Shown here in pieces: positions 2,108-35,199 of a stretch of 64,000 bases of DNA. Below the pieces are notes generated by a model that saw only the letters and a program-made list of their open reading frames with translations, was not told the origin of the DNA and made no database searches. Made by a program: the position numbers and the translations under genes. The stretch is from Clostridia bacterium (GTDB lineage Bacteria > Bacillota > Clostridia > Christensenellales > CAG-138), in NCBI GenBank assembly GCA_017438865.1, contig JAFRUN010000006.1:5552-69551 (forward strand), read 5' to 3'. Numbering within the stretch: the first letter of the stretch is position 1; the number at the start of each line of letters is the position of its first letter.

Positions 2108-2996
2108 GGCGGCGCGTGTAAGGGGAGAATGGAAGCGGCTCGTCGTGCAGGCGGCGGCGTTTCTTCTCCAGAATCCGAAACTGCATCATTTCTTCCTCGG
2201 CACGATCGAAAAGGGCGAAACGAAGTCCGTCTGCGTGCCGGGGCTGAACTGCTATTCCTGTCCGGCGGCGATCGGCGCGTGTCCGATTGGTTCGCTGCAG
2301 AATTCCATGAGCGGCGGCTATAAAAAGCCGGCGTTTCCGTTCTATGTGCTCGGGTTTCTGCTCCTGTTCGGATTGACGCTCGGACGCTGGATCTGCGGCT
2401 GGCTCTGCCCGTTCGGGTGGGTGCAGGACCTCGTTTACCGTATTCCGTTTTTCAAAAAGCTCCGTACGTTCCGCTTCGAGCGGTATTTCCGTTGGCTCAA
2501 ATACGCCGTGCTCGCGGTGCTCGTGATCGGGCTGCCGCTTCTGTCTGCGTTCAAAGGCGTACTCGTGCCGTGGTTCTGCAAGGTGCTTTGCCCGTCCGGC
2601 ACGCTGTTCGGCGGGATCCCGCTGGTCGCGGCGAACGCCGCGCTTAAAAATCAGATCGGCTTCCTCTTCTGGTGGAAGGTCGGCGTACTCTCGGCGCTTC
2701 TTCTGCTGTCGCTGCTTGTTTCGCGTCCGTTCTGCCGGTATCTCTGCCCGCTCGGCGCGATCTACGGACTGTTCAACCGCATTGCGCTGGCGCATCTCAG
2801 CTATGAAAAAGAAACGTGCGTCGACTGCGGAAAGTGCGTTTCGGTCTGTCCGATGGGGATCGATCCGAAAAAACAGTTCGATTCAATAGAGTGCATTCGC
2901 TGCGGACGCTGCGCGCGGGCGTGCCCGACCGACGCGCTCACGGTGCGGTTCGGGCTTCGGAAGAAGGCGGAATCTCACAAAAAATCCACAATATAA
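2100..2996 (+). CDS. Integral-membrane 4Fe-4S polyferredoxin (NapH/MauN/CcoG-like)
   Basis: Three CX3CP motifs (CGWLCPFG, CKVLCPSG, CRYLCPLG), several TM segments, and two ferredoxin motifs (CVDCGKCVSVCP, CIRCGRCARACP). There is an extra N-terminal CVPGLNCYSCPAAIGAC. The TTG start is uncertain; an in-frame GTG at 2145 is possible. Confidence 0.85.
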   Translation: MAKAARVRGEWKRLVVQAAAFLLQNPKLHHFFLGTIEKGETKSVCVPGLNCYSCPAAIGACPIGSLQNSMSGGYKKPAFPFYVLGFLLLFGLTLGRWICGWLCPFGWVQDLVYRIPFFKKLRTFRFERYFRWLKYAVLAVLVIGLPLLSAFKGVLVPWFCKVLCPSGTLFGGIPLVAANAALKNQIGFLFWWKVGVLSALLLLSLLVSRPFCRYLCPLGAIYGLFNRIALAHLSYEKETCVDCGKCVSVCPMGIDPKKQFDSIECIRCGRCARACPTDALTVRFGLRKKAESHKKSTI

Positions 2997-3076
2997 TGCT
3001 TGCAAATTCCGAGAAGTGTGATAGGATATCAAGCGAAGAAAAGACGGGGGATCCCCGCAGGGAAAGAAGGATAACC

Positions 3077-5248: not shown

Positions 5249-6871
5249 TCAGTGTACGTTCAGCGTGACCGCGTACTGCGGAAATTCGGTCGTGGTCGAT
5301 TCGTAATTCCAGGAATTTACGCCGGGCGCGCTCCATTCCGTCACGCCGTATTCGGGATTCATTGTTCCGAGCGGATTCTTTTTCGTGCCGTTGTCGTACT
5401 GGTGGTAAACGTCCATCGTATCGACGGAACGAATGACCGGCACGAACGCGATCGTTTTGATCGAACCCATCATCTCGTACGGAACGTTCTCGATCTCCGA
5501 TAATTCATACACCACGGTGCCGTCGTCTTCCGCTTTGCAGTTATACGGATTGGCAAACCAATCGCCGCTTTCCCCGTTGAGCAGCACCTTGAACGTCAGC
5601 GAATCGGCAAGCGCTTCGCGATCCTCACGCGTCCACGATTCCGGAACGTTGATACGGATCCTGATGTTTTTGATTCCCAGCGTGCTGAATTCCGCACCCT
5701 CCGTATCGGCGGTCATGGTAAGACCTTCCGTCGAAACGCGCTGTTTATACAGCGAAACGCGATCGTCTTCGTAGCGGTCGTCCGGATCTCCGAAATCGAT
5801 GTCAATTTTGCTGACGGCAACCGTTTCCGCGCCCCACACGACGGGAGCATTTGCTTTCACCGCGGTCGATTCGACGTTCTGATACGCTTTCATATTGACG
5901 GTGATCGTGCCGATCTGCGCGTTATAGAGCTCGGTGTCCGGAACGTAGCTGCCGTCGCCGCGGTCCTCCTCGATCACGCTGACGACGTAATAAACCTTCG
6001 CGGTCAGATTGCCGTCGGCGTCGAGGTACTGCTCGTAGTCGTGCGGGAAGATCTGGGCTGCCGCCATCAGACCGTTCTCGGCAAGATACGCGCGGTTTTC
6101 CGCGTCGATCGCCTGCATCTGCTCCTCCGTCTTGTTTTCGACCAGAAGACCGAGGTCGTGCAGTCGGTCCAGATGTCCTTCGATTGACGAAGTCAGGTCG
6201 ATCATGCCGCCGAAACGCTTGCCGTCCGGCATTTCATACATGATCCAGCTTTCCGGCATTTCATACAGCGTCTTTTCGCCGGAAAGATATTCCTCGCCCG
6301 GGCCGCCCTCGTACAGTCCCCAGACCGCGTACGGATCGACGGGAACCCCCGTGGTGCGGCTGCCGGTCCAATGCTCCAGAAGATACAGACCGGAAAGTCC
6401 GTTCAGTCGGATCGTCTGGTAAAGGGTGTTCCCGTCGAACATGGCTTCGCCGAGCTCGACGTCGCAGTTCTCATGCAGAAATGCCGAGACCTTCAGCGCG
6501 CCTTCGCTGTTGACCGCCTCGGAATCGGTGCGGTCGATCGGGATCGTAACGACGTCCTCGTTTGCGGCAGGCGACGCGATCAGCGAATCGAGCTCCGGAA
6601 CGTCTGCCCGCTCGCTCGGGTCTGCGGTCAGATAATCCGCGGGGCGCGAAACGCCGAACCACGAAAGGACCTCGGCTCTCGCCGACGGAATTAAGAAGAC
6701 CGTGCCGAGTGCAAGTACGAGGCACGCCGCGATCGGCAGCAGGATCTTTGTCCACACGATCGGCTGTTTCTGCTTCTGCGCCGCTTCTCTCAATACTGCG
6801 CGGCGGATGGATTCTTTTTTCATCAGCTCGTTTTCCGCAAAGGACAGGAGCTGTTCGGATGTGTTTTTCAT
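5249..6871 (-). CDS. Putative anti-sigma factor: single-pass membrane protein with a roughly 470-aa extracytoplasmic domain
   Basis: ATGA start/stop overlap with the upstream sigma gene. One TM (ILLPIAACLVLALGTVFLI) after a short cytoplasmic N-terminus. Full-length paralog of 46816-48210. Confidence 0.6.
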   Translation of the reverse strand: MKNTSEQLLSFAENELMKKESIRRAVLREAAQKQKQPIVWTKILLPIAACLVLALGTVFLIPSARAEVLSWFGVSRPADYLTADPSERADVPELDSLIASPAANEDVVTIPIDRTDSEAVNSEGALKVSAFLHENCDVELGEAMFDGNTLYQTIRLNGLSGLYLLEHWTGSRTTGVPVDPYAVWGLYEGGPGEEYLSGEKTLYEMPESWIMYEMPDGKRFGGMIDLTSSIEGHLDRLHDLGLLVENKTEEQMQAIDAENRAYLAENGLMAAAQIFPHDYEQYLDADGNLTAKVYYVVSVIEEDRGDGSYVPDTELYNAQIGTITVNMKAYQNVESTAVKANAPVVWGAETVAVSKIDIDFGDPDDRYEDDRVSLYKQRVSTEGLTMTADTEGAEFSTLGIKNIRIRINVPESWTREDREALADSLTFKVLLNGESGDWFANPYNCKAEDDGTVVYELSEIENVPYEMMGSIKTIAFVPVIRSVDTMDVYHQYDNGTKKNPLGTMNPEYGVTEWSAPGVNSWNYESTTTEFPQYAVTLNVH

Positions 6872-7813: not shown

Positions 7814-8033
7814 GATCTCCGTTTTCGGCTGACCTGGTCTTTGACCCCACACTCGCCGGCAGGAGGGTTCGCTCATAAGCATTGCTCCCCACTACTGCCC
7901 CTCTCGACGGAATACCGCCGGCCGGACTTACTCCTAAGCCGCACCGTGCTCACGGACGCTTTGGTCCGCTTACGTGGATCGTTTTGCCTGCGACTGGCTT
8001 CGACTTGCAACCACAGACCCGAATTCGGACATC
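7814..8033 (-). ncRNA. Candidate structured RNA (6S-like architecture, or a structured 5' leader of the zinc-ribbon gene)
   Basis: No credible ORF in the region. The predicted TSS coincides with the 5' arm GAUGUCCG (8033-8026), which pairs 7/8 with CGGAGAUC (7821-7814). Further helices: GGUCU (8019-8015) with AGACC (7840-7836), and GCAGG (7991-7987) with CCUGC (7863-7859). Local hairpin at 7920-7905. G-U pairs form only in the minus-strand reading. Confidence 0.3.
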
Positions 8034-22055: not shown

Positions 22056-23585
22056 TCAACCGAGGTTCGGCAGATCGACGGAGGAGGTCAGACTTTCGCC
22101 GTACCGGAACTGCTTGCGCAGCAGCTCATACCGCACCGAATAGGTGCTTTTGCGGGAGTAGTCGAAGCGCCACTCGTTCAGCGTCGGATCCTTTGCGGTC
22201 GTGTTGACGACGCAGTCCGGCACGCGCTTTTTGAATTCCTCGATCTGCTCGTCCGGGATGCGGTTCCGTGCGATCCACAGCCGTTCCAGCTTTGTGAGCC
22301 CGTAAAGCGGCGAGATATCGGTGATCTTGTTCATGCACAGGTTCAGATGCCTGAGCTCCGTGCAGTTCGCGAGCGCCGAAATATCCGTGATGTGCCCGTT
22401 GAACAGCTCGGCGTATTCGAGGTGCGGACAGTTTGCAAACGCCGAAATGTCCGTCGGCTGCTGGATCGCAAGGATGCAGACCTCGAGGTCCGGCATGTAT
22501 CCGACAAAATATGCGTCCTGGATGAGGTTGTGTCCGAGATCGAGGTATCGGACCTCGTTGCAGTAGATCAGCCCGCGCGTGTTGATGTCCCGCAGCATCG
22601 GGTATTGATAGAACATCGTAAACCGGATCATCTTTACGTCCGTGCGGCATGAATATGCGCCGACGTGCACGCGCCATACGATCTTCGGCGAGGGGAACGC
22701 CTCGCGCAGCGCCGCCATTTCTTCGTCGGGAATGCCGCAGTTTTCCATATCGAGCCGTCCGACGCAGCGCAGGTACGGCAGAAGCGCCGTAAGCTCTTCC
22801 GTGCGGTCCGACAGGAGGACGCCGTTGAAATTCACGACGTCGTCGGTCAGTGAAAAACGCCTGCCGAACGCCGTAACGTTGAGGTCGACGCGAATCTCCG
22901 GGCGAATCGCCTGCAGACGTCCCGCGTCCTCAAGCGTCCAGTCCGACGTGCCGTCCGCGCGGTTCAGTTCGATATCGACGAGGTTCGGGAGAACCGCGAC
23001 CGCGTCGCATACCTCGTCCAGAAACGCGGGGGAGACGTCCGAAAGATCCGCAGCCGCCGCATCGCTTGAAAGCGTCACGCCGGCAGCCGATACGGCATAC
23101 GAAAGCGCGGCGTCGGGCAGCGCCGCCGTCAGCGCGGCGGCATCTTCGGCGGTCATCGGTTCGGTCACGGTCAGCTCCGAAAGCGCGGGGAGATATCTGA
23201 GAACACCGGCGTCCGGCACGCTTTTGACGCTTGCCGCCTGTACGTCGGGCGAAAGCGCCGTTTCGCCGACCGAAACGGTATAGATCACATCCACCTCGGG
23301 ATGCGCGTCGCGGTAGGCAAGGATCGCATCGTAGCAGACGCTGCCGGAAACGTCCAGCGTGTGAAGACCGGGGATCCGTTCGATCAGGGCGAAATCGTCC
23401 GCGTCGACCGCGGCGCGCAGCACGCCGTTTTCCGCAACCGCGCCGTTCACGGCGACCGGCGTCGGCAGCGGCGCCGGCGCTTCGCTTGCGGCGGGTTCTT
23501 CGACGGGAAATTCCGCGCCGGAACAGCCCGCGGCGAAAAGCAGCAGACACAGGCAGAAAACAAGACCGATTCCAATCCGTTTCAT
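22056..23585 (-). CDS. Leucine-rich-repeat lipoprotein (internalin-like LRR)
   Basis: Lipobox LFAAGCSG. About 22-aa LRR units (LxLxxNxIxDISxL), e.g. HLNLCMNKITDISPLYGLTKLERLWIARNRI. Confidence 0.8.
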   Translation of the reverse strand: MKRIGIGLVFCLCLLLFAAGCSGAEFPVEEPAASEAPAPLPTPVAVNGAVAENGVLRAAVDADDFALIERIPGLHTLDVSGSVCYDAILAYRDAHPEVDVIYTVSVGETALSPDVQAASVKSVPDAGVLRYLPALSELTVTEPMTAEDAAALTAALPDAALSYAVSAAGVTLSSDAAAADLSDVSPAFLDEVCDAVAVLPNLVDIELNRADGTSDWTLEDAGRLQAIRPEIRVDLNVTAFGRRFSLTDDVVNFNGVLLSDRTEELTALLPYLRCVGRLDMENCGIPDEEMAALREAFPSPKIVWRVHVGAYSCRTDVKMIRFTMFYQYPMLRDINTRGLIYCNEVRYLDLGHNLIQDAYFVGYMPDLEVCILAIQQPTDISAFANCPHLEYAELFNGHITDISALANCTELRHLNLCMNKITDISPLYGLTKLERLWIARNRIPDEQIEEFKKRVPDCVVNTTAKDPTLNEWRFDYSRKSTYSVRYELLRKQFRYGESLTSSVDLPNLG

Positions 23586-23710
23586 TACGGACGCCCTCCG
23601 GAACACAGCTTTTTATTCAGTATAGCACGGTTCGGCAAAAAAGACCATCCGAATTTTGCGAATCATGCAACGTTTTGCCCGAAAATTGCGTCTTGATCTA
23701 TGAGGACGTT

Positions 23711-23743
23711 TTACAACTCGGTTACAACTCTGTGACATTTCGG
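23711..23743 (+). promoter_or_regulatory. Three 11-bp phased direct repeats (site A): TTACAACTCGG TTACAACTCTG TGACATTTCGG
   Basis: Read directly from the sequence. Lies 110 nt upstream of the response-regulator gene. Confidence 0.5.
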
Positions 23744-23803
23744 ATGCGTTTCGGACGAATTTTGCTGATATGCTGAAAACGGAGTCAAAAGGGATCGATA
23801 TTT

Positions 23804-23835
23804 TTACAACTCGGTTACATCTCGTATGATATAAT
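23804..23835 (+). promoter_or_regulatory. Two 11-bp direct repeats (site B: TTACAACTCGG TTACATCTCGT) replacing the -35, then a TATAAT -10
   Basis: The repeats end at 23825. TATAAT lies at 23830-23835, AGGAGG at 23842 and the ATG at 23853. This is a pho-box-like layout. Confidence 0.55.
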
Positions 23836-23852
23836 TACGTCAGGAGGGGCAT

Positions 23853-24506
23853 ATGGCACGGATTTTGATTTTGGAGGACGAGAAGGCGATCAACGACCTC
23901 GTTGCGCTGAATCTCGGCATGATCGGGCATACGGCGGTGCAGACGTTTACCGGCAGGGAAGCGCTGAAAGCGGCGGCGGAAACGCCGTTCGACCTGCTGA
24001 TCCTCGACGTGATGCTGCCGGACACGAACGGGTTTGCGGTCTACGAAAAGCTCAGGGACATCCCGGCGATCTTTCTGACGGCGCTCGGCGAAACGGCGGA
24101 CAAGGTCAAGGGCTTCGAGCGCGGCGCGGACGATTACATCGTCAAACCGTTTGAGATGACGGAGCTTCTTTTACGCGTGGAGGCGGTTCTGCGCCGCACG
24201 CACAGGAGCGAAAGCCGCTATCGCATCGACGGTCTGGAGGTCGATTTTGAGGCAAAGACCGTCCTGAAGGACGGCATACCGGTCGATCTGACGCTGCAGG
24301 AATACGCACTTTTGGAGGTCCTGATCAAAAACCGCAACATTGCCCTTTCGCGGCAGCGCCTGATGCGCGAGGCATGGGACGTATCGTTTTTGGGCGAGTC
24401 CCGTACGATCGACGTGCACATCCAGCGGCTGCGCAAAAAACTCGGTCTGGACGACCGGATCAAAACCATCTACCGGCTCGGATACCGGTTCGAGGAGACG
24501 CCGTGA
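23853..24506 (+). CDS. OmpR/PhoB-family response regulator
   Basis: Receiver domain (DLLILDVMLPD) plus a winged-helix C-terminus (TIDVHIQRLRKKL...YRLGYRF). Confidence 0.9.
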   Translation: MARILILEDEKAINDLVALNLGMIGHTAVQTFTGREALKAAAETPFDLLILDVMLPDTNGFAVYEKLRDIPAIFLTALGETADKVKGFERGADDYIVKPFEMTELLLRVEAVLRRTHRSESRYRIDGLEVDFEAKTVLKDGIPVDLTLQEYALLEVLIKNRNIALSRQRLMREAWDVSFLGESRTIDVHIQRLRKKLGLDDRIKTIYRLGYRFEETP

Positions 24507-25621
24507 AACTCAGACAGAAAAGTTATTTTTTGACGGTGCTGCTGATCGGAGCGGTGCTCTTTTTGAGCACGCTCTTTTTGCTGCTGCCGAACGTCCGGTC
24601 CGCTGTTTCCTCGATCGAAGCGCGTGCGCTCGGCGAGGAAAAGGCGCTTGCGCTGGCGGTCGAAGGGCTGTCCGAGAACATCCCGAAGGAGGATCGCCGA
24701 AAATACGTGCGCGGGTTTGCGGTGTATGACAGCGGCGGATCGACGTTCGCCGTCGGGCTGGACGAAGAAACATGGATCGCGACCGAACCGCTCCCGCCCG
24801 AAACGGAGCCGGGCAGGGTGCGCTGGCTCAATCGGAACGGGCGCACCGTGATCGCGATTGCGGACGCGCTTTCGGACGGCGTATGGGTGCGCTACGGGCT
24901 GGATGTGACGGACGAGCTGAAGCGCGCGGAGCGGCAGGCGACCGGCACGCTTCTTTTGTGTACCTGTCTTACCGGCGGCATCGCCGTCGCGCTGTATTTT
25001 ATGCTGGAACGGCTGAACCGTCCGGTCGAGCGGCTTGCGCATGAGCTTCGCACGCCGCTGACCGTGATCCGCGGCTACGGCGAGCTTCTGGAACGCGCCA
25101 AGCTCACGCCGGAGCAGCAGCACATGGCGGCAAGCTATATCGTTTCCGAGAGCGAGCGGCTCGGCGAGATCTCGCAAAAGCTGCTGACGCTTGCCGACGC
25201 GCGAAAGAGTGCGTTCAAGCCGGAGCGTATCCGCCTTTCCGAGCTTGCGGAGCACTTAAAGCAGACGTATCCGACGCTTGAAACCGAGATCGGATGGGAC
25301 GAACTGACTGCGGATCGCGCGCTGATGCTGAGCTTGCTCGGAAACCTGATCGGCAACGCCGTGAAGGCGTCGGCGCCCGGCCGTCCCGTTCTGATGAAAG
25401 CGGCGCCCGGCACGATCGAGATCGTTGACGAAGGCGCGGGCATGACCGAAGAGCAGCTTCACTATGTCAACGACCCCGCGCGCGCAAAGAATCCGTCGAT
25501 CCGCAGCGGTCTCGGCGTGCCGCTGTGTCACGAGATCGCCGCTTTGCACGGCGCGACGCTCACATACGCTTCAAAAGCAGGCGAGGGAACGACGGCGACG
25601 GTACATTTTACAAGTCTGTGA
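24503..25621 (+). CDS. Sensor histidine kinase
   Basis: The GTG start overlaps the RR stop. Two TMs flank a roughly 150-aa extracytoplasmic loop. H-box HELRTPL. N/G boxes (GNAVKAS, DEGAGM, GLGVPL). Confidence 0.85.
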   Translation: MKLRQKSYFLTVLLIGAVLFLSTLFLLLPNVRSAVSSIEARALGEEKALALAVEGLSENIPKEDRRKYVRGFAVYDSGGSTFAVGLDEETWIATEPLPPETEPGRVRWLNRNGRTVIAIADALSDGVWVRYGLDVTDELKRAERQATGTLLLCTCLTGGIAVALYFMLERLNRPVERLAHELRTPLTVIRGYGELLERAKLTPEQQHMAASYIVSESERLGEISQKLLTLADARKSAFKPERIRLSELAEHLKQTYPTLETEIGWDELTADRALMLSLLGNLIGNAVKASAPGRPVLMKAAPGTIEIVDEGAGMTEEQLHYVNDPARAKNPSIRSGLGVPLCHEIAALHGATLTYASKAGEGTTATVHFTSL

Positions 25622-25661
25622 CAACTCTGTGAGGACTCCGTTACAAGTCCCGTGTTACGAT
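25608..25661 (+). promoter_or_regulatory. Four 11-bp phased repeats (site C: TTACAAGTCTG TGACAACTCTG TGAGGACTCCG TTACAAGTCCC), then a TACGAT -10-like hexamer
   Basis: Overlaps the kinase stop codon. The last repeat ends 4 nt before the hexamer, the same spacing as site B. Confidence 0.5.
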
Positions 25662-25687
25662 GGGGCCGCAGAAAGGAGGAAAAAGCT

Positions 25688-27214
25688 ATGAAATCATTTT
25701 TCCGCAAACACAAGATCCTTATGATCGCGCTCTGCTCCGTGCTCTGCCTGGGCGTCCTGTCCGGACTGGTCATCGGCGGCGTGATCCGATTCTCCACCCG
25801 CGGCACTTCGTTTGAAACCGTTGCAGACGCCGTGGAAAAGCAGAACGCCGAACACCTTTCGGCAGCGAATGAGGACGGCAAATCGGTCCCCGGCATGATG
25901 CCGACGCCGACGCCGATACCGCAGGACGCGAAGCTCAGCGCCGAAGAGGTCAAACGGCTCTCCGAGGAAGTCCAGCGCCGCAGACGCCCGGTGATCCCCG
26001 TCCGTTCCGACGTGTGGGTCGCAGACAACAGCATGCTCTGGAAGGAAACCGATCCCGACGCAGTTGAGAAGGAAGCTGCGCAGATGGCCGCGGAAAAGCT
26101 CACGCAGATCCTGTTCGGAAAGACCTATGTCGAACTGACCGGCAGCGAAGCAGCGACCGCAAACGTGCGGCTCTTTACCGATCCGGCGGGCGACCGCGAC
26201 GCGTTCCTGCGCATCACGGATCCGCAGGGCGTCTACATTCTTTCGATCCGCGCGGGCGATCAATCGCTCATCTGCGCCGACCTGCTGACCTATCCGGAAG
26301 CGCCGTCGACGGACCGTGAAAAGGAATGCATCGCGATCGCGGAGGAACTCGGCTATCATGCCGTGCATTACCGCCATGACACCAACGGTCAGCACGAGAT
26401 CGTCTATGAGTTCAAGACCGATACGGACGTCTGTCTGACGTTCTCATATGTGTACGATAAGCTGTGGCAGGTTGCGGTCCATCCGAGCCAGCAGACAATG
26501 GAGGAATGCGAGTACTTCCTTGCGGACATCCAGCTGGACTATTCGAAGCCCGCATATCCGAAAGACTTTGTCGAAGCGGAACCGCCGAAGCTGGGATACG
26601 ATAAGATGGTCAGCGAAGAGAAGATCTTTGCGTCGCTTACCCGGCTTTATAAGAACCTGTCCGGCAGGGATCTCGACACGTCCAAACTGAAGGCGACGTT
26701 CCTTCGCGACAACAGCGGCGGACGCGAGGACTGCTGGCAGATCACCGGCGAAGGATTCGATATCGTCATCTCGGCATATTCGCGCGACGTGATCTCGTTT
26801 ACCGGTGCAATCCCCTGCGAGAACCTGCTCTCAATTCCATATGAAAAGATGGGCGAAGAGGAATATGAAGCCGAGACGAAGAAGATCGCGGATTATCTGA
26901 TCACTTCGCTCGGCGCGTACGGCGACGGTTTTCACGGAAAGAACGCGACGAGGATCGACGTCAACGCGGTCTATGACGGTCACTACTGCACCATGGATAT
27001 CGTGACCGAAGAAGGCACATGGTACGAGTGCTATTTCGAGGACGGCGTGCTGAAAGAGATCTGGCATTTTGCGGATGAAAAGCTGTTCATGGACGCACCG
27101 CACGGCTGGGTCGCGGATGCGGTCTACATTCACAGCTTTACGGGAAAGCCGTATATTCCGGAGTATCGCGACTGGGACGGCAACCTGCATGTGACGCAGC
27201 GCCCCGAAGCGTAA
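25688..27214 (+). CDS. Hypothetical N-terminally membrane-anchored extracytoplasmic protein
   Basis: Starts MKSFFRKHK with AAAGGAGG upstream. One TM (ILMIALCSVLCLGVLSGLVIGGV). I recognise no family. Confidence 0.65.
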   Translation: MKSFFRKHKILMIALCSVLCLGVLSGLVIGGVIRFSTRGTSFETVADAVEKQNAEHLSAANEDGKSVPGMMPTPTPIPQDAKLSAEEVKRLSEEVQRRRRPVIPVRSDVWVADNSMLWKETDPDAVEKEAAQMAAEKLTQILFGKTYVELTGSEAATANVRLFTDPAGDRDAFLRITDPQGVYILSIRAGDQSLICADLLTYPEAPSTDREKECIAIAEELGYHAVHYRHDTNGQHEIVYEFKTDTDVCLTFSYVYDKLWQVAVHPSQQTMEECEYFLADIQLDYSKPAYPKDFVEAEPPKLGYDKMVSEEKIFASLTRLYKNLSGRDLDTSKLKATFLRDNSGGREDCWQITGEGFDIVISAYSRDVISFTGAIPCENLLSIPYEKMGEEEYEAETKKIADYLITSLGAYGDGFHGKNATRIDVNAVYDGHYCTMDIVTEEGTWYECYFEDGVLKEIWHFADEKLFMDAPHGWVADAVYIHSFTGKPYIPEYRDWDGNLHVTQRPEA

Positions 27215-27229
27215 CCTTTCAAAGAACAA

Positions 27230-27263
27230 GCGACCGGCGGGATATCGCCGGTCGCTCCTTTTT
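27230..27263 (+). terminator. Rho-independent terminator
   Basis: GCGACCGGCG-GGATAT-CGCCGGTCGC followed by TCCTTTTT. Confidence 0.8.
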
Positions 27264-27316
27264 ACAACTAAATTACAACTATCTTGCAATTATATGACAT
27301 CTCTGTGACGTTTTGT
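27262..27316 (+). promoter_or_regulatory. Five 11-bp phased repeats (site D: TTACAACTAAA TTACAACTATC TTGCAATTATA TGACATCTCTG TGACGTTTTGT)
   Basis: Read directly from the sequence. Lies upstream of the phosphodiester glycosidase lipoprotein gene. Confidence 0.5.
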
Positions 27317-27368
27317 ACGAATTTGCGTCGTATCATGAAAGCAGATCCACGAAAGGACGGCGGCTTTT

Positions 27369-28322
27369 ATGAAACGAACGATGCTACTCCTTCTTGTTCT
27401 CCTATTTTCGGGCTGCACCGTGCCTGCGCGCGACGGAGTGCGTCCGCCGGACATGCCTGTTCCGGAAACGGCGGATTACGTTGCACCGCCCGCGGCGGAG
27501 GAAGCGGACGCGCCCGAAGAACCGTCCGAACCGTCGCTCCCGACCGCCTCCGCGGAAGACCGGTTTCCGGACCGGTTCTCCGAAACGCCGGAATACGGCG
27601 AAAAGAGTTATAAAAGCGGTTCGATCTCCGTTACGATCACGACGCATACGGTTTCCGACGTCTACGGAAAGATCGTGAGCTACCACGTCGCGGATATTTA
27701 CGTGAAGGACGTCGCCTCGATCCGGACCGCGGCGGCGGGCAGCGATTTCCGTTCGCACCGCGAACGCACCGTGAAGGACATCGCGGACGGCGTCGGCGCG
27801 CTTCTGGCGATCGACGGCGACACGTTCACCCATATGCAGAGCGGTCTTGTGGTCCGAAACGGTGAGATATACCGCGACACGCTGTGCGAAGGGACCGACG
27901 TCTGCATCCTGTATCGCGACGGACGCATGGAAACGAAGCGATGGGGCTCGTTCACGGCGCAGGAGATCCTTGACGCCGATCCGTGGCAGGTGTGGAGTTT
28001 CGGTCCCGCCCTGCTCGACGAAAACGGGCGGTCCGCGGAGGTCGAAAGCAATCTGAACGGACACAATCCGCGTGCGGCGATCGGCTATTTCGAGCCGGGG
28101 CACTACTGCTTTGTGATCGTCGACGGACGGCAGGACGGCTGGTCCGACGGTGTGCGGCTTTCCGCATTGAGCCGGCTCATGGAGGATCTCGGCTGCAAAG
28201 CGGCGTATAACCTCGACGGCGGCAATTCCGCGCAGATGTACTGGAACGGCGAAATCGTCAGCAAGGCATGCGGCAGCGGGCGCGTCGTCAGCGATATCGT
28301 TTATCTCCTGCCCGAAGAATAA
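27369..28322 (+). CDS. Phosphodiester glycosidase (NAGPA/DUF2233-like) lipoprotein
   Basis: Lipobox LLFSGC. C-terminal pattern AIDGDTF..., NPRAAIGYFEPGHYCFVIVDGRQ..., AYNLDGGNSAQM. Confidence 0.8.
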   Translation: MKRTMLLLLVLLFSGCTVPARDGVRPPDMPVPETADYVAPPAAEEADAPEEPSEPSLPTASAEDRFPDRFSETPEYGEKSYKSGSISVTITTHTVSDVYGKIVSYHVADIYVKDVASIRTAAAGSDFRSHRERTVKDIADGVGALLAIDGDTFTHMQSGLVVRNGEIYRDTLCEGTDVCILYRDGRMETKRWGSFTAQEILDADPWQVWSFGPALLDENGRSAEVESNLNGHNPRAAIGYFEPGHYCFVIVDGRQDGWSDGVRLSALSRLMEDLGCKAAYNLDGGNSAQMYWNGEIVSKACGSGRVVSDIVYLLPEE

Positions 28323-28451: not shown

Positions 28452-28488
28452 CACGAACCGTCTCAAATTGAGGCGGTTCGTGTCTTTT
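28452..28488 (+). terminator. Rho-independent terminator
   Basis: CACGAACCG...CGGTTCGTG followed by TCTTTT. Confidence 0.75.
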
Positions 28489-28565: not shown

Positions 28566-28594
28566 TTGATAATCAAATCGCCTTGTGCTAAAAT
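28566..28594 (+). promoter_or_regulatory. Promoter TTGATA-17-TAAAAT in an AT-rich region upstream of the glycan locus
   Basis: Hexamers and the 17-nt spacer were read directly from the sequence. Confidence 0.5.
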
Positions 28595-28687
28595 ATAAAC
28601 AAATCTTTCAGAAGCTCTTTTTTTGTATGCAAAGATAGTATATGGAAGATTTTGAGTTTCTTGCAAAAGAAAAGGAGGAAAACAATC

Positions 28688-29758
28688 ATGAAGAAAGTAT
28701 TTGCTATTCTGTTGGTTGCGCTGATGGTCATTTCTCTGGTCGCATGCGCAAAGACGGAGCCGAAGCCCGAGCCCGTAGCCGAGCCGACCGCTGCGCCCGC
28801 TCCCGAACCCGAGCCCGAACCCGAACCCGAGCCCGAGCCCGAACCCGAACCCGTTGCGGAGCCCCTTGTGGATCCGAACCATGAACTGTGGTGCGCACAC
28901 GGTCAGTTCCTTCTGGCCGACGGCACGCAGAACGGCTGGAACGGCAAGGACAGCGAGCTGTATGAGGCGTCCGCTCTGACGGCGATCACCCTTGAGGACG
29001 TCAAGGCGATCAGTGAAGACGTTTACAACGCACTTGCCGCAAAGGAAGTCAAGTACCTGTATGCGATCGATCTGCTCTTCGGCACCAACGATGCCGGCTG
29101 GACCACCAACTGCCTGATCAACGGCAAGATGCACAAGGCGAACGGCTCCTATGCGTTCAAGATTGCGCAGTGCACCGTGGATATCGACGGCGACAACAAG
29201 GTCTATGCGGAAGATCAGTGGATCCACGATCCGAAGACTGCTCACTCCGAGTCCCTGACGCCGGACACGCTGTTTGTCCCGGTCTGGCAGGAAGAGGCGG
29301 ATGAGAACGGCTTCTCCTGGGCGAGCAACCCCGCAGTCATCGGCGGCGCAGGTCTCTACACGCTGATCATTGCGCAGTACAAGAACGGCTCCACCCCGGA
29401 TCAGGCGGGCTACGGCATCGCACTTGTTCTGAAGGAAGCAAAGGAAGGCATCGCATATGAAGAGATCCTCGAGTGGATCGCGGCAGATCACACCTACGGC
29501 ATCGTCGGCGGCTTCGAAGCTTCCGGCTGGGCTGACGGCAAGGACATTGCGATGGAAGCGGACGGCGAGAACACCTGGAAGGGTGAAGTCGAACTGAAAG
29601 CTGGGGACGAATTCAAAGTCCGTGCAGACGGCAAGTGGGACTTCAGCTGGGGCGCCGAGGACGGCAGCAACTTCAAGGCGGAAGCTGACGGCACCTACAT
29701 CGTCACCATCACGTTTGCGGACGGCAAGGGCGTCGTTACGTTTGAGCCGAAAGCGTAA
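28688..29758 (+). CDS. Putative starch/glycan-binding lipoprotein (C-terminal CBM-like module reminiscent of SusE/F-type)
   Basis: Lipobox SLVACA. (EP)8 linker. The C-terminus GGFEASGWADGKDIAMEADGENTWKGEVELKAGDEFKVRADGKWDFSWG follows the usual aromatic pattern of starch-binding modules. It is the first gene of the amylase/pullulanase cluster. Confidence 0.65.
   Translation: MKKVFAILLVALMVISLVACAKTEPKPEPVAEPTAAPAPEPEPEPEPEPEPEPEPVAEPLVDPNHELWCAHGQFLLADGTQNGWNGKDSELYEASALTAITLEDVKAISEDVYNALAAKEVKYLYAIDLLFGTNDAGWTTNCLINGKMHKANGSYAFKIAQCTVDIDGDNKVYAEDQWIHDPKTAHSESLTPDTLFVPVWQEEADENGFSWASNPAVIGGAGLYTLIIAQYKNGSTPDQAGYGIALVLKEAKEGIAYEEILEWIAADHTYGIVGGFEASGWADGKDIAMEADGENTWKGEVELKAGDEFKVRADGKWDFSWGAEDGSNFKAEADGTYIVTITFADGKGVVTFEPKA
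28805..28852 (+). repeat. 8 x 6-nt GA(A/G)CCC coding microsatellite (Glu-Pro)
   Basis: Read directly from the sequence. Confidence 0.9.
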
Positions 29759-29858
29759 TTACTGAATCATTTGGGCTGACGCTTTGGCAGAAATGCGCAG
29801 GGCGTCAGCCCAATCCTTATTTTGACGGCATGATCCGAACATTTTTGAGAGGTCCGGT

Positions 29859-31925
29859 ATGAAAAAGAATCTTCTCTGCGGATGCCTTGCGCTGCTTCTG
29901 CTTCTGACCGCGTTCGGCTGCAAAAAAGACAAACCGGCGGAACCGGCGGTCACATCGAAGCCCGCTGCTGCGGAAACGGCTGCGCCGACGGAAGAACCGA
30001 AGGCGGACGTCCCGGAATTGAAAGAATTTGCGGATACCTACGAGGACCGTCTTCCCGAAAACGCGGAGGACGGATTGACGCTGCACGCGTTCAACTGGAC
30101 GTATCACGAGATCATGATCAATCTCGAAAACATCCGCAACGCGGGCTTTAAAAATGTTCTGACCATGCCGGTCCAGCAGCCGAAGGGTGGCGGCTCCGCC
30201 TGGTGGGCGTTCTATCAGCCTCTGAGCTTCTCCGTCGGCGACAATTCCGCGCTCGGCAGCAGGGAAGAGCTCGAGACGCTGTGCCGCGAGGCGGACAAGT
30301 ACGGCATCTGCATCCTCGCCGACATCGTCGTGAACCATATGGCGAACATCGATGACGATGCAAGGGAAGCCGACGGAACGCCGACGGTTCTGCCGCAGGT
30401 GGCGGAATACGAGCCGAAGATCTACAACAACCGGAACGAGGACGTCGACGGCATCGGCGTGACGTTCCATCACAACAAGAACGCCAAGGGCTCCGGCGCG
30501 GACACGCAGGTTTACGCCTACGGCAATCTGCCCGACCTTGACACCTCCAATCCGTACGTGCAGGAGCGCGTGCTTGCACTTCTCACGGAGTGCATCGACG
30601 CGGGCGTCGACGGGTTCCGATTCGACGCCGCCAAGCACGTCGAAACGGAGCAGGATCCCGACTATCCGAGCGATTTCTGGAACAACACGCTGGAAAAAGC
30701 GAAGGACTATTACCGCGAGAAGACCGGAAAAGAGCTTTACGCATACGGCGAGATCCTCGGCGAACCGTCGGGACGCACGCTGTCCAGCTATACGGACCAT
30801 ATGCGCATCACCGACGACGGATTTACGTCGCAGTTCAAGAGCGCGTTTGCTCAGAAGGATCCGAACCGCGTGCTGAACGCGCTGCTGAAGGGCGGCGACG
30901 CGACCAAGCTGATCGCGTGGGTGGAAAGCCACGATGAATACGTTTCTTCCAACACGCATTACAGCGACGTCCGCGTGGCAAAGTTCTGGTCGGTCATCGC
31001 CGCGAAGAAGGGACTGGGCGGTCTGTATCTGGCGCGCCCGAACGATGAACTGGTCGTCGGTCAGATCGGTTCCTATGCGTTTGAAAGCGAATACGTTGCG
31101 GTGAGCAACCGCTTCCATAACCGGTTCTACGCCGCGGATTCCTTTGAATCGGTCGACGGAACCTGTTACATCAACGAAAAGATCGCGCCCGACGATCAGG
31201 GTGTGCTGATCCTGAACGTGGGCGCGGTGGATCCGGAGGCGGTCGTCGAGGTAGCGGTCCCGCATCTCGAGGACGGCATCTATTACGATTCTCTGACGGG
31301 CAAACCGGTCGAGGTCCGCGATCACGTCGCGCGCGTGCAGTTCGAGGCGAACGGGCTTGCGGTGGTCACCCGTTCGAAGGACCTGCATCCGCAGCTCGCC
31401 GTTTCCGAGCGCGACTGCTCGTTCGCAGGAGAAAAGATCATCACGCTGAAAACCCGCAACTGCGAGGAAGCGTATTACTATTTCAACGGCGACGCTTCGG
31501 ACACGCATCCGTTCACGAACGAAGCCGAGGTGCCGGTGCACGAATATGTAAAGGACGGGAAGGCGGATCTTTCGGTCGTCGTCCGCACCGGAAAGAACAC
31601 GTTTGAACAGATGTTCACCTATACGCAGATTCAGCTGCTGGAAGGCGGCTTCAACCTGATCAACATCGATGAGAAATATCTGAACGGCGAATACGAGCTC
31701 TATATCTGGAGCTGGAGTCCGGGCAGATGGAGCAAGGATTACGAGATCCGCGACGGCATCATGGTCGTGGATACGACGGGCATGACCGGCTTCCTTGTCG
31801 CCGCGTTCGAGAAGGGCTATGAGATCGCCGACGTGAACAACTGGGATTCCAACGTGATCATGCAGAGCACCGACATCAAAGGCGATCTCCTCACACTGGG
31901 ATTCTTCGATATGTCCGGATTTTAA
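29859..31925 (+). CDS. GH13 alpha-amylase lipoprotein with C-terminal accessory domains
   Basis: Lipobox LTAFGC. GH13 regions DIVVNH, GFRFDAAKH, YGEILGE and WVESHD. Confidence 0.9.
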   Translation: MKKNLLCGCLALLLLLTAFGCKKDKPAEPAVTSKPAAAETAAPTEEPKADVPELKEFADTYEDRLPENAEDGLTLHAFNWTYHEIMINLENIRNAGFKNVLTMPVQQPKGGGSAWWAFYQPLSFSVGDNSALGSREELETLCREADKYGICILADIVVNHMANIDDDAREADGTPTVLPQVAEYEPKIYNNRNEDVDGIGVTFHHNKNAKGSGADTQVYAYGNLPDLDTSNPYVQERVLALLTECIDAGVDGFRFDAAKHVETEQDPDYPSDFWNNTLEKAKDYYREKTGKELYAYGEILGEPSGRTLSSYTDHMRITDDGFTSQFKSAFAQKDPNRVLNALLKGGDATKLIAWVESHDEYVSSNTHYSDVRVAKFWSVIAAKKGLGGLYLARPNDELVVGQIGSYAFESEYVAVSNRFHNRFYAADSFESVDGTCYINEKIAPDDQGVLILNVGAVDPEAVVEVAVPHLEDGIYYDSLTGKPVEVRDHVARVQFEANGLAVVTRSKDLHPQLAVSERDCSFAGEKIITLKTRNCEEAYYYFNGDASDTHPFTNEAEVPVHEYVKDGKADLSVVVRTGKNTFEQMFTYTQIQLLEGGFNLINIDEKYLNGEYELYIWSWSPGRWSKDYEIRDGIMVVDTTGMTGFLVAAFEKGYEIADVNNWDSNVIMQSTDIKGDLLTLGFFDMSGF

Positions 31926-31937
31926 GGGGGACTTGCA

Positions 31938-34784
31938 ATGAAAACGAGGAAATGGCTTGCGTTCCTGCTGACGGTCCTGCTCGCCGCGACGCTGCTTCTT
32001 CCGGGCTGCGGAAAACAGCCGAAGGACAGTGCGCCGGTCGTGACGGAAGCGCCGGCCGTGACGGAAGCGCCGAAGGAAACGGAAGCGCCGGTCGTCGTCG
32101 ACGAGGGACCGGACGACGTTCCGATCGCACTGGTTCCGGCGGGCGACGTCATCGACAAGTATACAAAGGATGAAACGGATCACGCGTCGCAGCCGAACGC
32201 CGAAACGAAGTTCGTCCGCCTGCATTACAGACGCAACGACGACAGCTTCAACGACAGAAGTCCGTACACACCGTGGAACGTCTGGGCGTGGGATATGACC
32301 AACGGCGGCAACGGCGCGGCGTACGAGTTCACGGGGTATGACGATTACGGCGTGTACGTCGATCTGGACCTCGATCTGATCTCCGGCGGCAAGCCGGTCG
32401 ACAAGCTCGGCTTCATCATCCGCACGGACAACTGGGCGAAGGACCCGGACGGCGACCGCGTGATCGACGTGCAGCCGGAAACGCCGGACGGCATCCAGGA
32501 CGTTTATGTGCGCACGACCGAATCGACGGTGTTCTATACGCAGGACAATGCGCTGAAATCCATTATCAGCTATGCGCTGCTGCAAGGCGAAAAGACGATC
32601 TCGGTGTATTTCAAGCCGCTTTCCGGCGAGTTCAGACCGTATCAGACACGCTTTGATCTGACGGTCAACGACGAACCCTACGAGAACTTCACGATGGGCG
32701 AGTACGACGCTTCGCTGAAGAGAGTCGACCTTAACCTCAACGGAGACGGGATCGACCTCTGCGACGTGGTGAAGGTCAGCTACCGCTTCGACCCCACTTG
32801 GATCAATCAGGTCGGACTGATGTTTACGAATTATTACGATACCGAAGAATTCAACGAAAAGTACGACTACGACGGGACCGACCTCGGCGCCACGTTCGAC
32901 AACGAGGAACACCCGACGGTCACGACCTTCAAGGTGTGGGCGCCGACGAGCGCAAAGATCGAGCTTCGCATCTACAATACCGGCGATTACACGAAGGAAA
33001 CGGAACCCGCCGAAACGTATGAAATGACGCGCGGCGAAAAAGGCGTATTCGAGTATTCCGTGCCGAAGGACCTCGACGGCAAGTATTATACCTACCTCGT
33101 CACCAACTCGCTGGGGACGAACGAGGTCGTCGATCCCTATGCAAAGAGTGCGGGCATCAACGGACGCCGCGGCATGGTGGTCAACTTCACGAAGCTGAAC
33201 AGCGGCATCGAGGGCTGGGACGCCGATGTGCGCCCGTTCACGGGCCGTCCGGTCGACGCGGTGATCTATGAAGCGCACGTCCGCGACATGACGATCAGCG
33301 AAACGAGCGGCGTGGAGGAGCAGTTCCGCGGCAAGTTCCTCGGACTTGCACAGGAAAGCTCGTATACGGCGAACGGCGTCACGGTCTCCACGGGACTCAG
33401 ACACATGCAGGAGCTCGGCATCACGCATGTGCAGCTGCAGCCGTTCTATGATTATTCGTCCGTCAACGAAATGACGTCCGGCAATACGATGTCGGCGGAA
33501 AACTACAACTGGGGCTACGATCCTCTGAACTACAACGTCCTCGAGGGCAGCTACTCCACCGATCCGTACGACGGATACAACCGCATCGTCGAATTCAAGA
33601 AGATGGTGATGGCGCTGCACGCCGCCGGCATCTCGATCAACATGGACGTGGTCTACAACCACACGAGCAGCTCCGAAAACTCGAACCTGAACCTGCTGGT
33701 TCCGTATTACTATTACCGCACGAAGGCGAACGGCTCGTTCTACAACGGCTCCGGCTGCGGCAACGAGGTCGCTTCCGAACGGTACATGGTCAACAAGTTC
33801 ATCCGCGAATCGTGTAAGTTCTGGATCGGCGAATACCATCTGTCCGGCTTCCGCTTCGACCTGATGGGACTGCTTGATAATCAGACCATGATCGACGTCT
33901 ATAAGGACTGCAGCGCGATCGATCCCGCGATCATGGTGTACGGCGAGCCGTGGGCGGGCGGCACCTCGAAGCTGAAGAGCGGCACGAGCGAAACGAAGCT
34001 CACCGGTCAGATGACCGTTCAGGAATCGCTTGCGCAGGACTACTTCTCCGGCAGCGGCGTGATGGTCGGCGCGTTCAATGACGTGATCCGCAACGCGATC
34101 CGCGGCGACAACGGACCCGGCAAGGGCTATGTGCAGGGCGTTTCGTCCGACGCGTCGATGATCGCGATGTGCGCGGAGGGCGTGTTCTCCAAGGGCACGG
34201 TCAAGACGCAGAACATCGATCCGAATCTCGTTCTGAATTATGCGTCGTGCCACGACAACTACACGCTGTACGATCAGCTGGTGCAGACCGTGAACGAGGA
34301 TCGTCTGAAGGCGGCGTATACGCAGGCGGACGCCATCGTCTTCCTGGTACAGGGCGTGCCGTTCATTCAGGAGGGCGAGGAGTTCATGCGCAGCAAGCTG
34401 GATCCCGAAACCGGGAAGTATTCCGGCAACTCGTACAATGTCGGCGACTTCATCAATGTGATGGATTATTCGCTGAAGATCACGCATGCGGACGTCTTCG
34501 AGAAGACGAAGGAGCTGATCGCGTTCCGCAAAACCGCGGCGGAATTCCGTCTCGGTACGCGGCAGGAGATCAGGGACGTCATGTCGGACGTTTCCTTCGG
34601 CAAGGGCAACGTCAGCTACCGCTTCGGCGATTACCTCGTGATCCATTCCGTTTCGGGAACGTCGGTGGAGCTTGACGGCAGCTACGAGATTGTCTATTCC
34701 AACGTGCGGACGAATTACGGACCGGTCTCCGGCACGCTGACCGTTTCCGTCAACGAATCCGTCGTATTGAGGAGGGTGAGTTAA
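31938..34784 (+). CDS. pulA: Type I pullulanase (GH13) lipoprotein
   Basis: Lipobox LLPGCG. Signature YNWGYDP. Regions DVVYNHT, GFRFDLMG, YGEPW and ASCHDN. Confidence 0.9.
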   Translation: MKTRKWLAFLLTVLLAATLLLPGCGKQPKDSAPVVTEAPAVTEAPKETEAPVVVDEGPDDVPIALVPAGDVIDKYTKDETDHASQPNAETKFVRLHYRRNDDSFNDRSPYTPWNVWAWDMTNGGNGAAYEFTGYDDYGVYVDLDLDLISGGKPVDKLGFIIRTDNWAKDPDGDRVIDVQPETPDGIQDVYVRTTESTVFYTQDNALKSIISYALLQGEKTISVYFKPLSGEFRPYQTRFDLTVNDEPYENFTMGEYDASLKRVDLNLNGDGIDLCDVVKVSYRFDPTWINQVGLMFTNYYDTEEFNEKYDYDGTDLGATFDNEEHPTVTTFKVWAPTSAKIELRIYNTGDYTKETEPAETYEMTRGEKGVFEYSVPKDLDGKYYTYLVTNSLGTNEVVDPYAKSAGINGRRGMVVNFTKLNSGIEGWDADVRPFTGRPVDAVIYEAHVRDMTISETSGVEEQFRGKFLGLAQESSYTANGVTVSTGLRHMQELGITHVQLQPFYDYSSVNEMTSGNTMSAENYNWGYDPLNYNVLEGSYSTDPYDGYNRIVEFKKMVMALHAAGISINMDVVYNHTSSSENSNLNLLVPYYYYRTKANGSFYNGSGCGNEVASERYMVNKFIRESCKFWIGEYHLSGFRFDLMGLLDNQTMIDVYKDCSAIDPAIMVYGEPWAGGTSKLKSGTSETKLTGQMTVQESLAQDYFSGSGVMVGAFNDVIRNAIRGDNGPGKGYVQGVSSDASMIAMCAEGVFSKGTVKTQNIDPNLVLNYASCHDNYTLYDQLVQTVNEDRLKAAYTQADAIVFLVQGVPFIQEGEEFMRSKLDPETGKYSGNSYNVGDFINVMDYSLKITHADVFEKTKELIAFRKTAAEFRLGTRQEIRDVMSDVSFGKGNVSYRFGDYLVIHSVSGTSVELDGSYEIVYSNVRTNYGPVSGTLTVSVNESVVLRRVS

Positions 34785-34785
34785 G

Positions 34786-35199
34786 TTGTTCAGACACGGT
34801 GACGTCAGCACCGAGGTCGACAAAAAGCCGTTCTGGTTTACGCTGATCGCATTCTTAGGAAGCACGGCGGCGGCGGTTCTGCTCTTTGTACTCGGCTGGG
34901 GACAGGCGCTTGCGATCTTTGCGGGGATCCTTCTTGCGATCGTCGCGGTCGGCTCGCTGGTGATTCTGTTCGCCATGCTGACGGATTATGCATTTATCGA
35001 TCAGGGCATTCTCAGGACGCGGTATCTGTTCAAAAAGACCGCCGTTCCGCTTGCCGAGATCGGGAAGGTCACCTGCCGTGAAAAGGTGTATTACATCTAT
35101 AACCGGCGGGGCGATCTTCTGGGGACCGTCAACGGGCTTTTGTCGGGGATCGATTCGATCCTGGGCGAGCTTGAAAACAACGGGGTGCACTTCGAGTAA
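34786..35199 (+). CDS. Small 2-TM membrane protein, possibly with a bacterial PH-like domain
   Basis: TTG start 2 nt after the pullulanase stop. Two TMs, then IDQGILRTRYLFKKTAVPLAEIGKV. The family assignment is tentative. Confidence 0.5.
   Translation: MFRHGDVSTEVDKKPFWFTLIAFLGSTAAAVLLFVLGWGQALAIFAGILLAIVAVGSLVILFAMLTDYAFIDQGILRTRYLFKKTAVPLAEIGKVTCREKVYYIYNRRGDLLGTVNGLLSGIDSILGELENNGVHFE

Follow-up and report, generated by a model that had tools for sequence, protein, structure and literature searches.

Phased 11-bp repeat arrays as probable operator-promoters of an OmpR/PhoB-family two-component system in rumen Clostridia

What are rows of short direct repeats doing in front of a two-component system and its neighbours in an uncultured clostridium, and which protein acts on them? 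The stretch in question, which we call the window, comprises 64,000 nucleotides of contig JAFRUN010000006.1 from the Clostridia bacterium assembly GCA_017438865.1 (Christensenellales, CAG-138). On its + strand lie, one after the other, genes for an OmpR/PhoB-family response regulator (217 aa, 23853..24506), a histidine kinase (372 aa, 24503..25621), a membrane-anchored extracytoplasmic protein of 508 aa (25688..27214) and a lipoprotein with a NAGPA (phosphodiester glycosidase) domain (317 aa, 27369..28322). A reading of the letters alone, which we refer to as the original prediction, had picked out four repeat sites in this cluster, A to D, and proposed that they define a compact regulon of the adjacent two-component system. 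Our analysis leads us to regard the four sites as probable operator-promoters of that system, with an activating role; the identity of the binder, the positive sign of control and the order of occupancy are what we infer here from sequence.

The predicted repeats proved to be real and sharply confined. Re-extracting the units reproduced all four sites: three units at site A (23711-23743), two at B (23804-23825), four at C (25608-25651) and five at D (27262-27316). All 14 units are on the + strand and keep an exact, unbroken 11-bp register (unit starts 23711, 23722, 23733, 23804, 23815, 25608, 25619, 25630, 25641, 27262, 27273, 27284, 27295 and 27306). Each is made of an 8-bp core, T(T/G)ACAA(C/G)T, and three variable bases, and the 16-mer TTACAACTCGGTTACA that sites A and B were said to have in common is found at 23711 and 23804. 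On both strands of the window the degenerate core T[TG]ACA[AT][CG]T occurs 13 times, 10 times within the four sites. When pairs of T[TG]ACA were counted at periods of 7-16 bp, a spacing of 11 bp gave five pairs, a period of 8 gave one and the others none. The two-unit pattern TKACAWSTNNNTKACA, with at most one mismatch, has seven matches, every one on the + strand and inside a site, as against 0.22 +/- 0.46 in 100 dinucleotide-preserving shuffles. A position weight matrix (PWM) of the 14 units, a check that had been proposed together with the motif, gave the same result within the window: two-unit matches scoring at least 14 bits were restricted to sites A-D (11 matches, 0 on the - strand, versus 0.36 in shuffles). 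Single-unit matches at 35091, 55838 and 1328 have no second unit in register behind them; those at 35091 and 55838 do not precede a gene, and the one at 1328 forms the -35 box of a conventional promoter, TTGACA-17-TATAAT. With two to six units per site, about one helical turn apart and none of them inverted, the sites have the direct-repeat form of OmpR/PhoB-family operators.

Aligning the four regions showed that each site is also a promoter, in which 3-4 nt separate a row of two to six units from the -10 box behind it. At three sites this box is extended by TGn (TGATATGCT at A, TGATATAAT at B and TGTTACGAT at C), the box of D is TATCAT, and those of A, C and D coincide when the arrays are aligned column for column. 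No -35-like (TTGACA-like) hexamer was found 16-18 bp from the -10 boxes of sites A-D. Relative to the predicted transcription starts, the sites thus lie within the promoter and cover the -35 position, as OmpR/PhoB-type operators do. This is the geometry of class II activation that the original prediction had suggested, with the row replacing the -35 element next to boxes of the form TAnnnT, and it makes activation itself a plausible prediction. We rejected the idea that the repeats serve as -35 boxes in any general way: the spacing between TTACAA and the -10 box is 9 or 20 bp, not 16-18, and the sole match of a promoter scan, TTTACA-16-TATGAT, competes with the perfect TGATATAAT 5 bp downstream.

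The four promoters fall into distinct forms. Sites A and D run past the coordinates first given for them, each by a 22-bp proximal block that keeps the 11-bp register but not the core. At site A, an array of the long class (23711..23765, + strand), the units TTACAACTCGG, TTACAACTCTG and TGACATTTCGG are joined by the two-unit block ATGCGTTTCGG ACGAATTTTGC. This block reaches an extended -10 box, TGATATGCT (23766..23774, +; hexamer TATGCT, 23769-23774), and site A is therefore a separate promoter upstream of site B; the repeats described there hold good, whereas the view of A as a mere upstream site does not, since A has a -10 box of its own. The TAnnnT positions of the long-class -10 box are kept in 28 distinct long-class sequences. 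Site B (23804..23825, +), of the short class, has just two units, TTACAACTCGG TTACATCTCGT, followed by the extended -10 box TGATATAAT (23827..23835, +). Its perfect TATAAT sits at 23830-23835, 4 nt behind the array as had been noted, and TGnTATAAT recurs at equal distance in six relatives (L002-L005, L010 and L012). Site C (25608..25651, +) consists of TTACAAGTCTG TGACAACTCTG TGAGGACTCCG TTACAAGTCCC and aligns without gaps across 17 distinct sequences, with a nearly invariant GTGnTACGAT at its extended -10 box TGTTACGAT (25653..25661, +); the TACGAT that had been placed 4 nt behind the array is at 25656-25661. The array does overlap the kinase stop codon, the TGA at 25619-25621 being the start of unit 2, but we do not think that this overlap, which had been singled out, means anything. 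In L002, L003, L009, L010 and L012 the kinase gene ends 60-400 bp earlier, and in these five loci the spacing between array and 508-aa gene is maintained despite the unrelated DNA inserted, so the overlap is incidental. Site D (27262..27327, +), again of the long class, is built from TTACAACTAAA TTACAACTATC TTGCAATTATA TGACATCTCTG and the proximal block TGACGTTTTGT ACGAATTTGCG, and ends before TATCAT (27331..27336, +), a -10 box placed by alignment with the other sites and the long-class sequences. The positions and register of the five units described at D are right, except that the fifth is not canonical and belongs to the proximal block. A strong intrinsic terminator (27229..27256, +; 12-bp stem, 9 GC pairs, T run) parts the 508-aa gene from site D, so that the NAGPA gene is its own transcription unit; a terminator-like hairpin follows that gene at 28452..28482 (+).

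Are these arrays kept outside the window? A profile from 22 homologues of the 508-aa protein led to 14 loci (139 kb) in metagenome-assembled genomes (MAGs) of rumen Clostridia and Christensenellales; 12 of the 14 have the gene order regulator, kinase, 508-aa protein, and in four the NAGPA gene comes next. A metagenome scan with the long-class promoter pattern gave 30 loci with 32 matches. Two matches, in L022 and L024, we set aside as chance, as they are without upstream units and without a PWM array; the gene behind the others encodes a NAGPA lipoprotein, a DUF6034-family lipoprotein or the regulator. We then scanned 455 kb, the window plus 44 related rumen loci, with a PWM made from the window's units only. 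Each of the 80 arrays found has the orientation of the next gene, which starts 18-148 bp further on. Automatic assignment placed 73 of them before genes for the regulator (21), the 508-aa protein (21), DUF6034 proteins (18) and NAGPA proteins (13); the other seven turned out on inspection to reflect start-calling glitches or small insertions before genes of these same families. Within these 455 kb, all 80 arrays precede one of four gene families.

The comparison of motif and gene order with relatives, which the original prediction had put forward as a test, came out in its favour: the arrays keep position, register and strand in more than 40 related loci. A short site, TTACAAcTnnGTTACAA and then TGnTATAAT, stands before the regulator gene in most of the loci found by homology, and a long site-A-type array does so in L006-L008, L030 and L041. 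Site C is present in all 12 loci with the regulator-kinase-508-aa order, including L013, whose kinase is only 42% identical. Arrays of the site-D type precede NAGPA genes in L002, L012, L016, L018-L020, L028, L030, L031, L033, L036 and L041-L043. Within the 139 kb of loci found by homology, the window's PWM hits arrays at those promoters and before DUF6034 genes only. In L005 and L009, DUF6034 genes with arrays lie on the upstream side of the two-component system, as does a DUF6034 homologue in L003 and L010, there with its own upstream DNA outside the fetched stretch. The long class offers a further view of selection, in that its units 1-2 lay outside the search pattern. Over 28 distinct long-class promoters the core of these units carries 1.75-1.9 bits per position and the three spacer positions 0.7-0.8 bits, a profile that indicates an 11-bp periodic pattern of selection.

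Which protein would act on the arrays? The nearest candidate has the right build. The regulator combines a receiver (PF00072, Response_reg) with a winged-helix domain (PF00486, Trans_reg_C), and the kinase gene, whose GTG start overlaps the regulator stop, encodes HisKA (PF00512) and HATPase_c (PF02518) domains, as in OmpR/PhoB-type systems. In the kinase, two hydrophobic segments seem to flank a loop of ~120 aa that we take, by eye from the translation, to be extracytoplasmic; Pfam detected no HAMP or PAS domain. The regulator falls below every NCBIfam equivalog cut-off (TIGR02154 PhoB, 183 bits versus 296; resp_reg_YycF, 143 versus 340) and the kinase below the curated scores (phoR_proteo, 74 bits versus 334; HK_WalK, 55 versus 725). 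Judged by these scores, the regulator is not PhoB, WalR, VanR or another named system. Membership in the phosphate regulon (PhoB/PhoP-PhoR) is further contradicted by targets that are not pst/phoA/phoD-type genes, and membership in WalRK (YycFG) by a kinase in which Pfam sees HisKA and HATPase_c only. Among nine orthologues (65-88% identity), the phospho-acceptor D52 and the recognition helix GESRT(I/V)DVHIQ(R/K)LR(K/R)KL are nearly invariant, a constancy that matches that of the unit core.

Genomic context points the same way. Each of the 20 regulator genes fetched together with its upstream DNA has an array in front of it (the window, L001-L010, L012, L013, L020, L029-L031, L039, L041 and L044), as does the one in L046. 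Arrays are found, too, before DUF6034 genes far from any two-component system, in L017, L021, L027, L035 and L037 (stretches of 7.6-12.7 kb), where no regulator or kinase homologue was detected even at E 1e-3 over at least 5-8 kb upstream of the array. The binding factor therefore acts in trans. Two loci supply the reverse case. In L014, a Christensenellaceae MAG chromosome, and L045, a metagenomic contig, true homologues of the 508-aa protein (hhalign probability 99.9) alternate with DUF6034 genes, and there is no two-component system and no array even at a lax score of 12 bits. These genes form an operon (L014 3074-10923; L045 1112-8962) that begins with a BlaI-like repressor and a short BlaR1-type M56 protease lacking the sensor domain. 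L046, a 37%-identical relative, has the two-component system and has kept the short site before the regulator gene, and its 508-aa gene, 15 bp after the kinase gene, is without a site of its own. With arrays absent behind the BlaI/BlaR1-type pair and the short site kept with the system in L046, the motif follows the two-component system and not the targets. The compact regulon proposed for the adjacent system is thus supported by protein domains, by conservation, by the restriction to four gene families, by unlinked targets and by the BlaI/BlaR1-type loci, with binding by the regulator as the predicted link among them.

How might such promoters work? We propose that the phosphorylated regulator would bind head-to-tail, one winged-helix domain per 11-bp unit and all on one face of the DNA, that occupancy would start at the well-matched upstream units and that it would spread cooperatively to the poorer promoter-proximal ones. 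As the row covers the -35 position, the regulator could stand in for the -35 contact and recruit RNA polymerase, that is, act by class II activation. Two promoters would then serve the regulator-kinase operon: P_A, with five units and TGATATGCT, strictly regulator-dependent, and P_B, with two units and the perfect TGATATAAT; together they would yield basal expression plus positive autoregulation. P_C, with four units and TGnTACGAT, would drive the 508-aa gene, and P_D, with six units and a weak TATCAT behind the terminator, the NAGPA lipoprotein gene. The design would be a graded one, in which two units and a perfect extended -10 box allow basal activity and five to six units with a weak box (NAGPA, DUF6034 and P_A) impose strict dependence.

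Several observations weigh against this interpretation, or at least limit its reach. The related loci all come from metagenomes or MAGs, with no isolate genome among them. They were sought through the 508-aa protein or the long-class pattern, so that the compactness of the regulon is a statement about these loci and not about whole genomes, and targets with other promoter forms would be missed. The perfect extended -10 box of P_B could fire without an activator, in which case a protein sitting at about -17 to -38 could repress. Finally, two elements do not match the core and nevertheless hardly vary: the 22-bp proximal block of the long class (TGACGTTTTGG ACGAATTT; block TGACGTTTTGGACGAATTT) and, at site C, unit 3 (TGAnGACTCCG). 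The same is true of the loci to which protein homology, not the DNA pattern, had led. Sites that are simply of low affinity ought to drift, so invariant non-canonical blocks are not what one would expect of weak cooperative sites; they may point to a specific RNA polymerase contact or to a second factor.

The alternative that survives best is that the adjacent regulator is a repressor, or a mixed regulator, activating at the long weak promoters but repressing at the strong short one, with binding from about -17 to -70 occluding polymerase. Rows that reach to within 3-4 nt of the -10 box would suit such a role, as would the three extended TGn boxes, which are workable without a -35 element, and ArcA mostly represses through similar repeat rows (PMC3798270). 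We nevertheless consider it unlikely: the one orientation and fixed distance to the -10 box shared by all 80 arrays fit a stereospecific contact with polymerase better than simple occlusion, and the long-class boxes are poor (TATCAT, TATTCT, TAGGAT) and have no -35 element, so these promoters should be nearly silent without help. Another trans-acting protein, either a different OmpR-family regulator or an unrelated repeat-binding factor, could also bind the arrays, with the neighbouring two-component system as just one more target. Computation names the binder only indirectly, a TTACA half-site is common to several OmpR-family regulators (PMC11806355), and the unlinked targets imply no more than a factor acting in trans. 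Against this, the invariable array before the regulator gene and the missing arrays at the same target families behind the BlaI/BlaR1-type pair tie the motif to this particular system, and 11-bp head-to-tail repeats are a signature of the OmpR/PhoB regulator family (PMC3798270, PMC2275107); we therefore rate a different binder as very unlikely. That the repeats are a by-product without regulatory role, through chance or as remnants of a local promoter-cassette duplication, draws on the 16-mer shared by A and B and on ~50 bp of similarity between sites A and D, but we give it practically no credence, as shuffles yield 0.2-0.4 matches where 7-11 are observed, the arrays persist across loci with proteins only 25-60% identical, with spacers diverged and cores kept, and arrays are present at unlinked genes; the comparative data already contradict it.

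Having arrived at activation by the adjacent regulator as the probable reading, the next question is what the system controls. The targets named in the original prediction (the two-component operon itself, the protein of 25688-27214 and the NAGPA lipoprotein) all have arrays before them in the window and in relatives. The regulon in relatives is wider and takes in DUF6034 lipoproteins, a fourth target family that is absent from the window. The 508-aa protein has no Pfam, NCBIfam or PDB sequence match, and its 74 homologues are all unnamed. Its gene comes after the kinase gene in all 13 two-component loci found by its own homology (L001-L010, L012, L013 and L046), and likewise wherever a locus found by the pattern shows both genes. 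An AlphaFold (AF2) model (mean per-residue confidence, pLDDT, 78.8) predicts an N-terminal helix, a disordered Pro/Thr linker and four modules of a helix and four strands each. The only Foldseek match of the model in the PDB at E<1e-3 is the C-terminal PepSY-repeat domain of YpeB (5boi; E 3.2e-4), and we tentatively suggest a PepSY-like (YpeB-like) fold. YpeB is the membrane-anchored partner of the spore cortex hydrolase SleB, and the two would be alike in having an N-terminal membrane helix and repeated helix/four-strand modules. They differ in that the 508-aa protein has four modules as against three, no sporulation context and no PepSY match at sequence level (none by Pfam at E<=1 for any of 22 family members). 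By analogy one might guess that the 508-aa protein partners a hydrolase such as the NAGPA protein. A relationship to DUF6034 we could dismiss (hhalign probability 0.6%).

The 317-aa protein scores as a member of PF09992 (96.7 bits versus a cut-off of 25, residues 144-313), which makes it a predicted phosphodiester glycosidase. Its N-terminus, ending ...LLFSGC, looks by eye like a lipoprotein signal peptide with lipobox cysteine, and it has weak similarity to the human uncovering enzyme 6pki. From their sequences, the targets are all predicted to lie outside the cytoplasm; besides the membrane-anchored PepSY-like protein they comprise lipoproteins of two kinds, NAGPA and DUF6034. A response that remodels cell-envelope glycopolymers, as first proposed, is a reasonable guess, with the NAGPA domain as the only hint of a glycopolymer (GlcNAc-1-phosphodiester links). 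In some relatives DUF6034 genes come as tandem sets of two to four paralogues (L026, L032, L037 and L038/L044), and the second paralogue in L037 has its own pair of repeat arrays, 3668-3711 and 3748-3780. In L009 (1295-1390), a perfect long-class promoter precedes a DUF6034 gene that is interrupted by an in-frame stop ~28 codons in, which marks a pseudogene or an assembly error.

Why would such genes travel together? In the loci examined the 508-aa gene always directly follows the gene for the kinase or the M56 protease, and the recurrent pairing of 508-aa-type with DUF6034 genes, downstream of a two-component system in some loci and of a BlaI/BlaR1-type pair in others, suggests an inducible envelope module. 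It is tempting to go further and to speculate, with considerable doubt, that the 508-aa and DUF6034 proteins, with NAGPA in some lineages, form an unrecognised extracytoplasmic module placed on interchangeable transmembrane signalling devices, with the 508-aa protein as an external co-sensor or feedback partner. If so, the device would be an OmpR-type system with TTACAACT arrays in the rumen clade and a BlaI-like repressor with a BlaR1-type M56 protease in L014 and L045; the 508-aa protein would be more than an output, in a logic comparable to that of YycH/YycI with WalK, and the system would signal that an envelope or environmental glycopolymer is present or has been damaged. Setting that speculation aside, the operator-promoters provide a precise and testable cis-regulatory code (8-bp core, 11-bp period, and three promoter classes of 2, 4 and 5-6 units) for a two-component system that had not been characterised, in rumen Clostridia that have not been cultured, and the motif allows regulon members to be identified in MAGs with no need for a culture. 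They also tie together three families without an assigned role (the 508-aa family, which has no Pfam entry, DUF6034 and the bacterial NAGPA lipoproteins), and give DUF6034 a first functional context; the 8 million papers covered by our search held no mention of DUF6034, and nothing relevant on a phosphodiester glycosidase with a two-component system or on TTACAAC with a response regulator.

The surroundings of the cluster deserve mention in their own right. A divergent gene for a leucine-rich-repeat (LRR, internalin-like) lipoprotein (22056-23585, - strand) is a kept neighbour of the cluster's first gene in the window, L012, L030, L041 and L044. No repeat array points toward it, and we found no support for site A as its regulator: all units point away, and the divergent gene of L012 adjoins only the short site. 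The sequence ATGCAACGTTTTGCC at 23665-23679, ~45 bp upstream of site A, is kept as ATGCAACGTATTGCC at the same place in L006-L008 and may belong to the LRR lipoprotein gene's promoter or form an independent operator. Beyond the NAGPA gene lies a 368-aa Pro-rich protein with a weak pullulanase X25-like domain (28652-29758, +), which is kept in L002, L016, L019, L030 and L036 and has its own sigma-70-like promoter (28566-28594) without a repeat array; behind it, on the opposite strand, is a 1719-aa open reading frame (29817-34976, -). Rfam recognised no known RNA element in the leaders (23-28 kb), the only match in the window being a full-length raiA RNA motif (RF03072) at 7820-8027 (-), with 192 bits versus a gathering score of 101. 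Intergenic DNA of relatives, though not the window, has short palindromic repeats resembling repetitive extragenic palindromes (REP) or miniature inverted-repeat transposable elements (MITE), such as catgaattgNNctgcgg... and gcatgatgcg... (L009 ~2960-3050, L003 2925-3260, L010 3760-3825, L012 4775-4915, and after the long-class promoter in L015/L034); some sit between a promoter and its gene. A repeated element of ~70 bp (...GCGTTTACAAnnGAnnAG...AGCGTGAnnTTTTGCGGAGAGGAGG), found in three genomes at intergenic positions that differ (L003 ~960-1010, L005 ~3030-3100 and L012 ~6720-6790), could represent either a small mobile element or an RNA element.

How does this system compare with those already known? 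The mechanism we propose is textbook OmpR/PhoB biology, so the value of the locus lies in annotation and as an entry point rather than in a new principle; it is a previously undescribed, well-delimited case of a very well-known type of regulatory system. Bacillus subtilis PhoP boxes, as reported from the Hulett laboratory, are said to be TT(A/T/C)ACA repeats about every 11 bp on the coding strand from -20 to -60 that mark activated promoters, reportedly with four or more repeats and no -35 box. On this description the half-site (TTACA), period, strand and position relative to the -10 box would be nearly the same here; the differences are the absence of pst, pho or tua context, a much smaller kinase (372 aa) with a different sensor part, and envelope targets. 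Acinetobacter BfmR, an OmpR-family regulator with a site in its own promoter, also recognises direct repeats of a 5-bp half-site, TTACA, that resemble OmpR and RstA sites, but with a 5-bp spacer (10-bp period), usually with two repeats, and as a global regulator in a proteobacterium (PMC11806355). Head-to-tail rows of half-sites about one helical turn apart are likewise seen with E. coli OmpR at ompF and ompC (contiguous F1-F3 and C1-C3) and with ArcA, whose sites have 2-5 repeats at 11-bp spacing (PMC3798270), and there too the number and quality of sites are graded from promoter to promoter, giving concentration-dependent occupancy. OmpR and ArcA, however, are proteobacterial global regulators with large regulons, ArcA being mostly a repressor, whereas the arrays described here serve a small uniform set of four extracytoplasmic-type families. 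Of the documented architectures, the PHO box of Streptomyces coelicolor PhoP comes closest: its operators are 11-nt direct repeats, at least two needed and up to six per operator, and poorly conserved units are still protected by cooperative binding that starts at the core units (PMC2275107). The 11-nt unit, the two to six units per site and the core units beside poor ones in register all have their counterpart in our arrays, as would positive control by an OmpR/PhoB-family regulator that includes its own operon. What sets the two apart is the core itself, G(G/T)TCAYYYR(G/C)G there and T(T/G)ACAA(C/G)T here, together with a regulon without phosphate genes, a regulator below the PhoB cut-offs and a kinase without a PAS domain.

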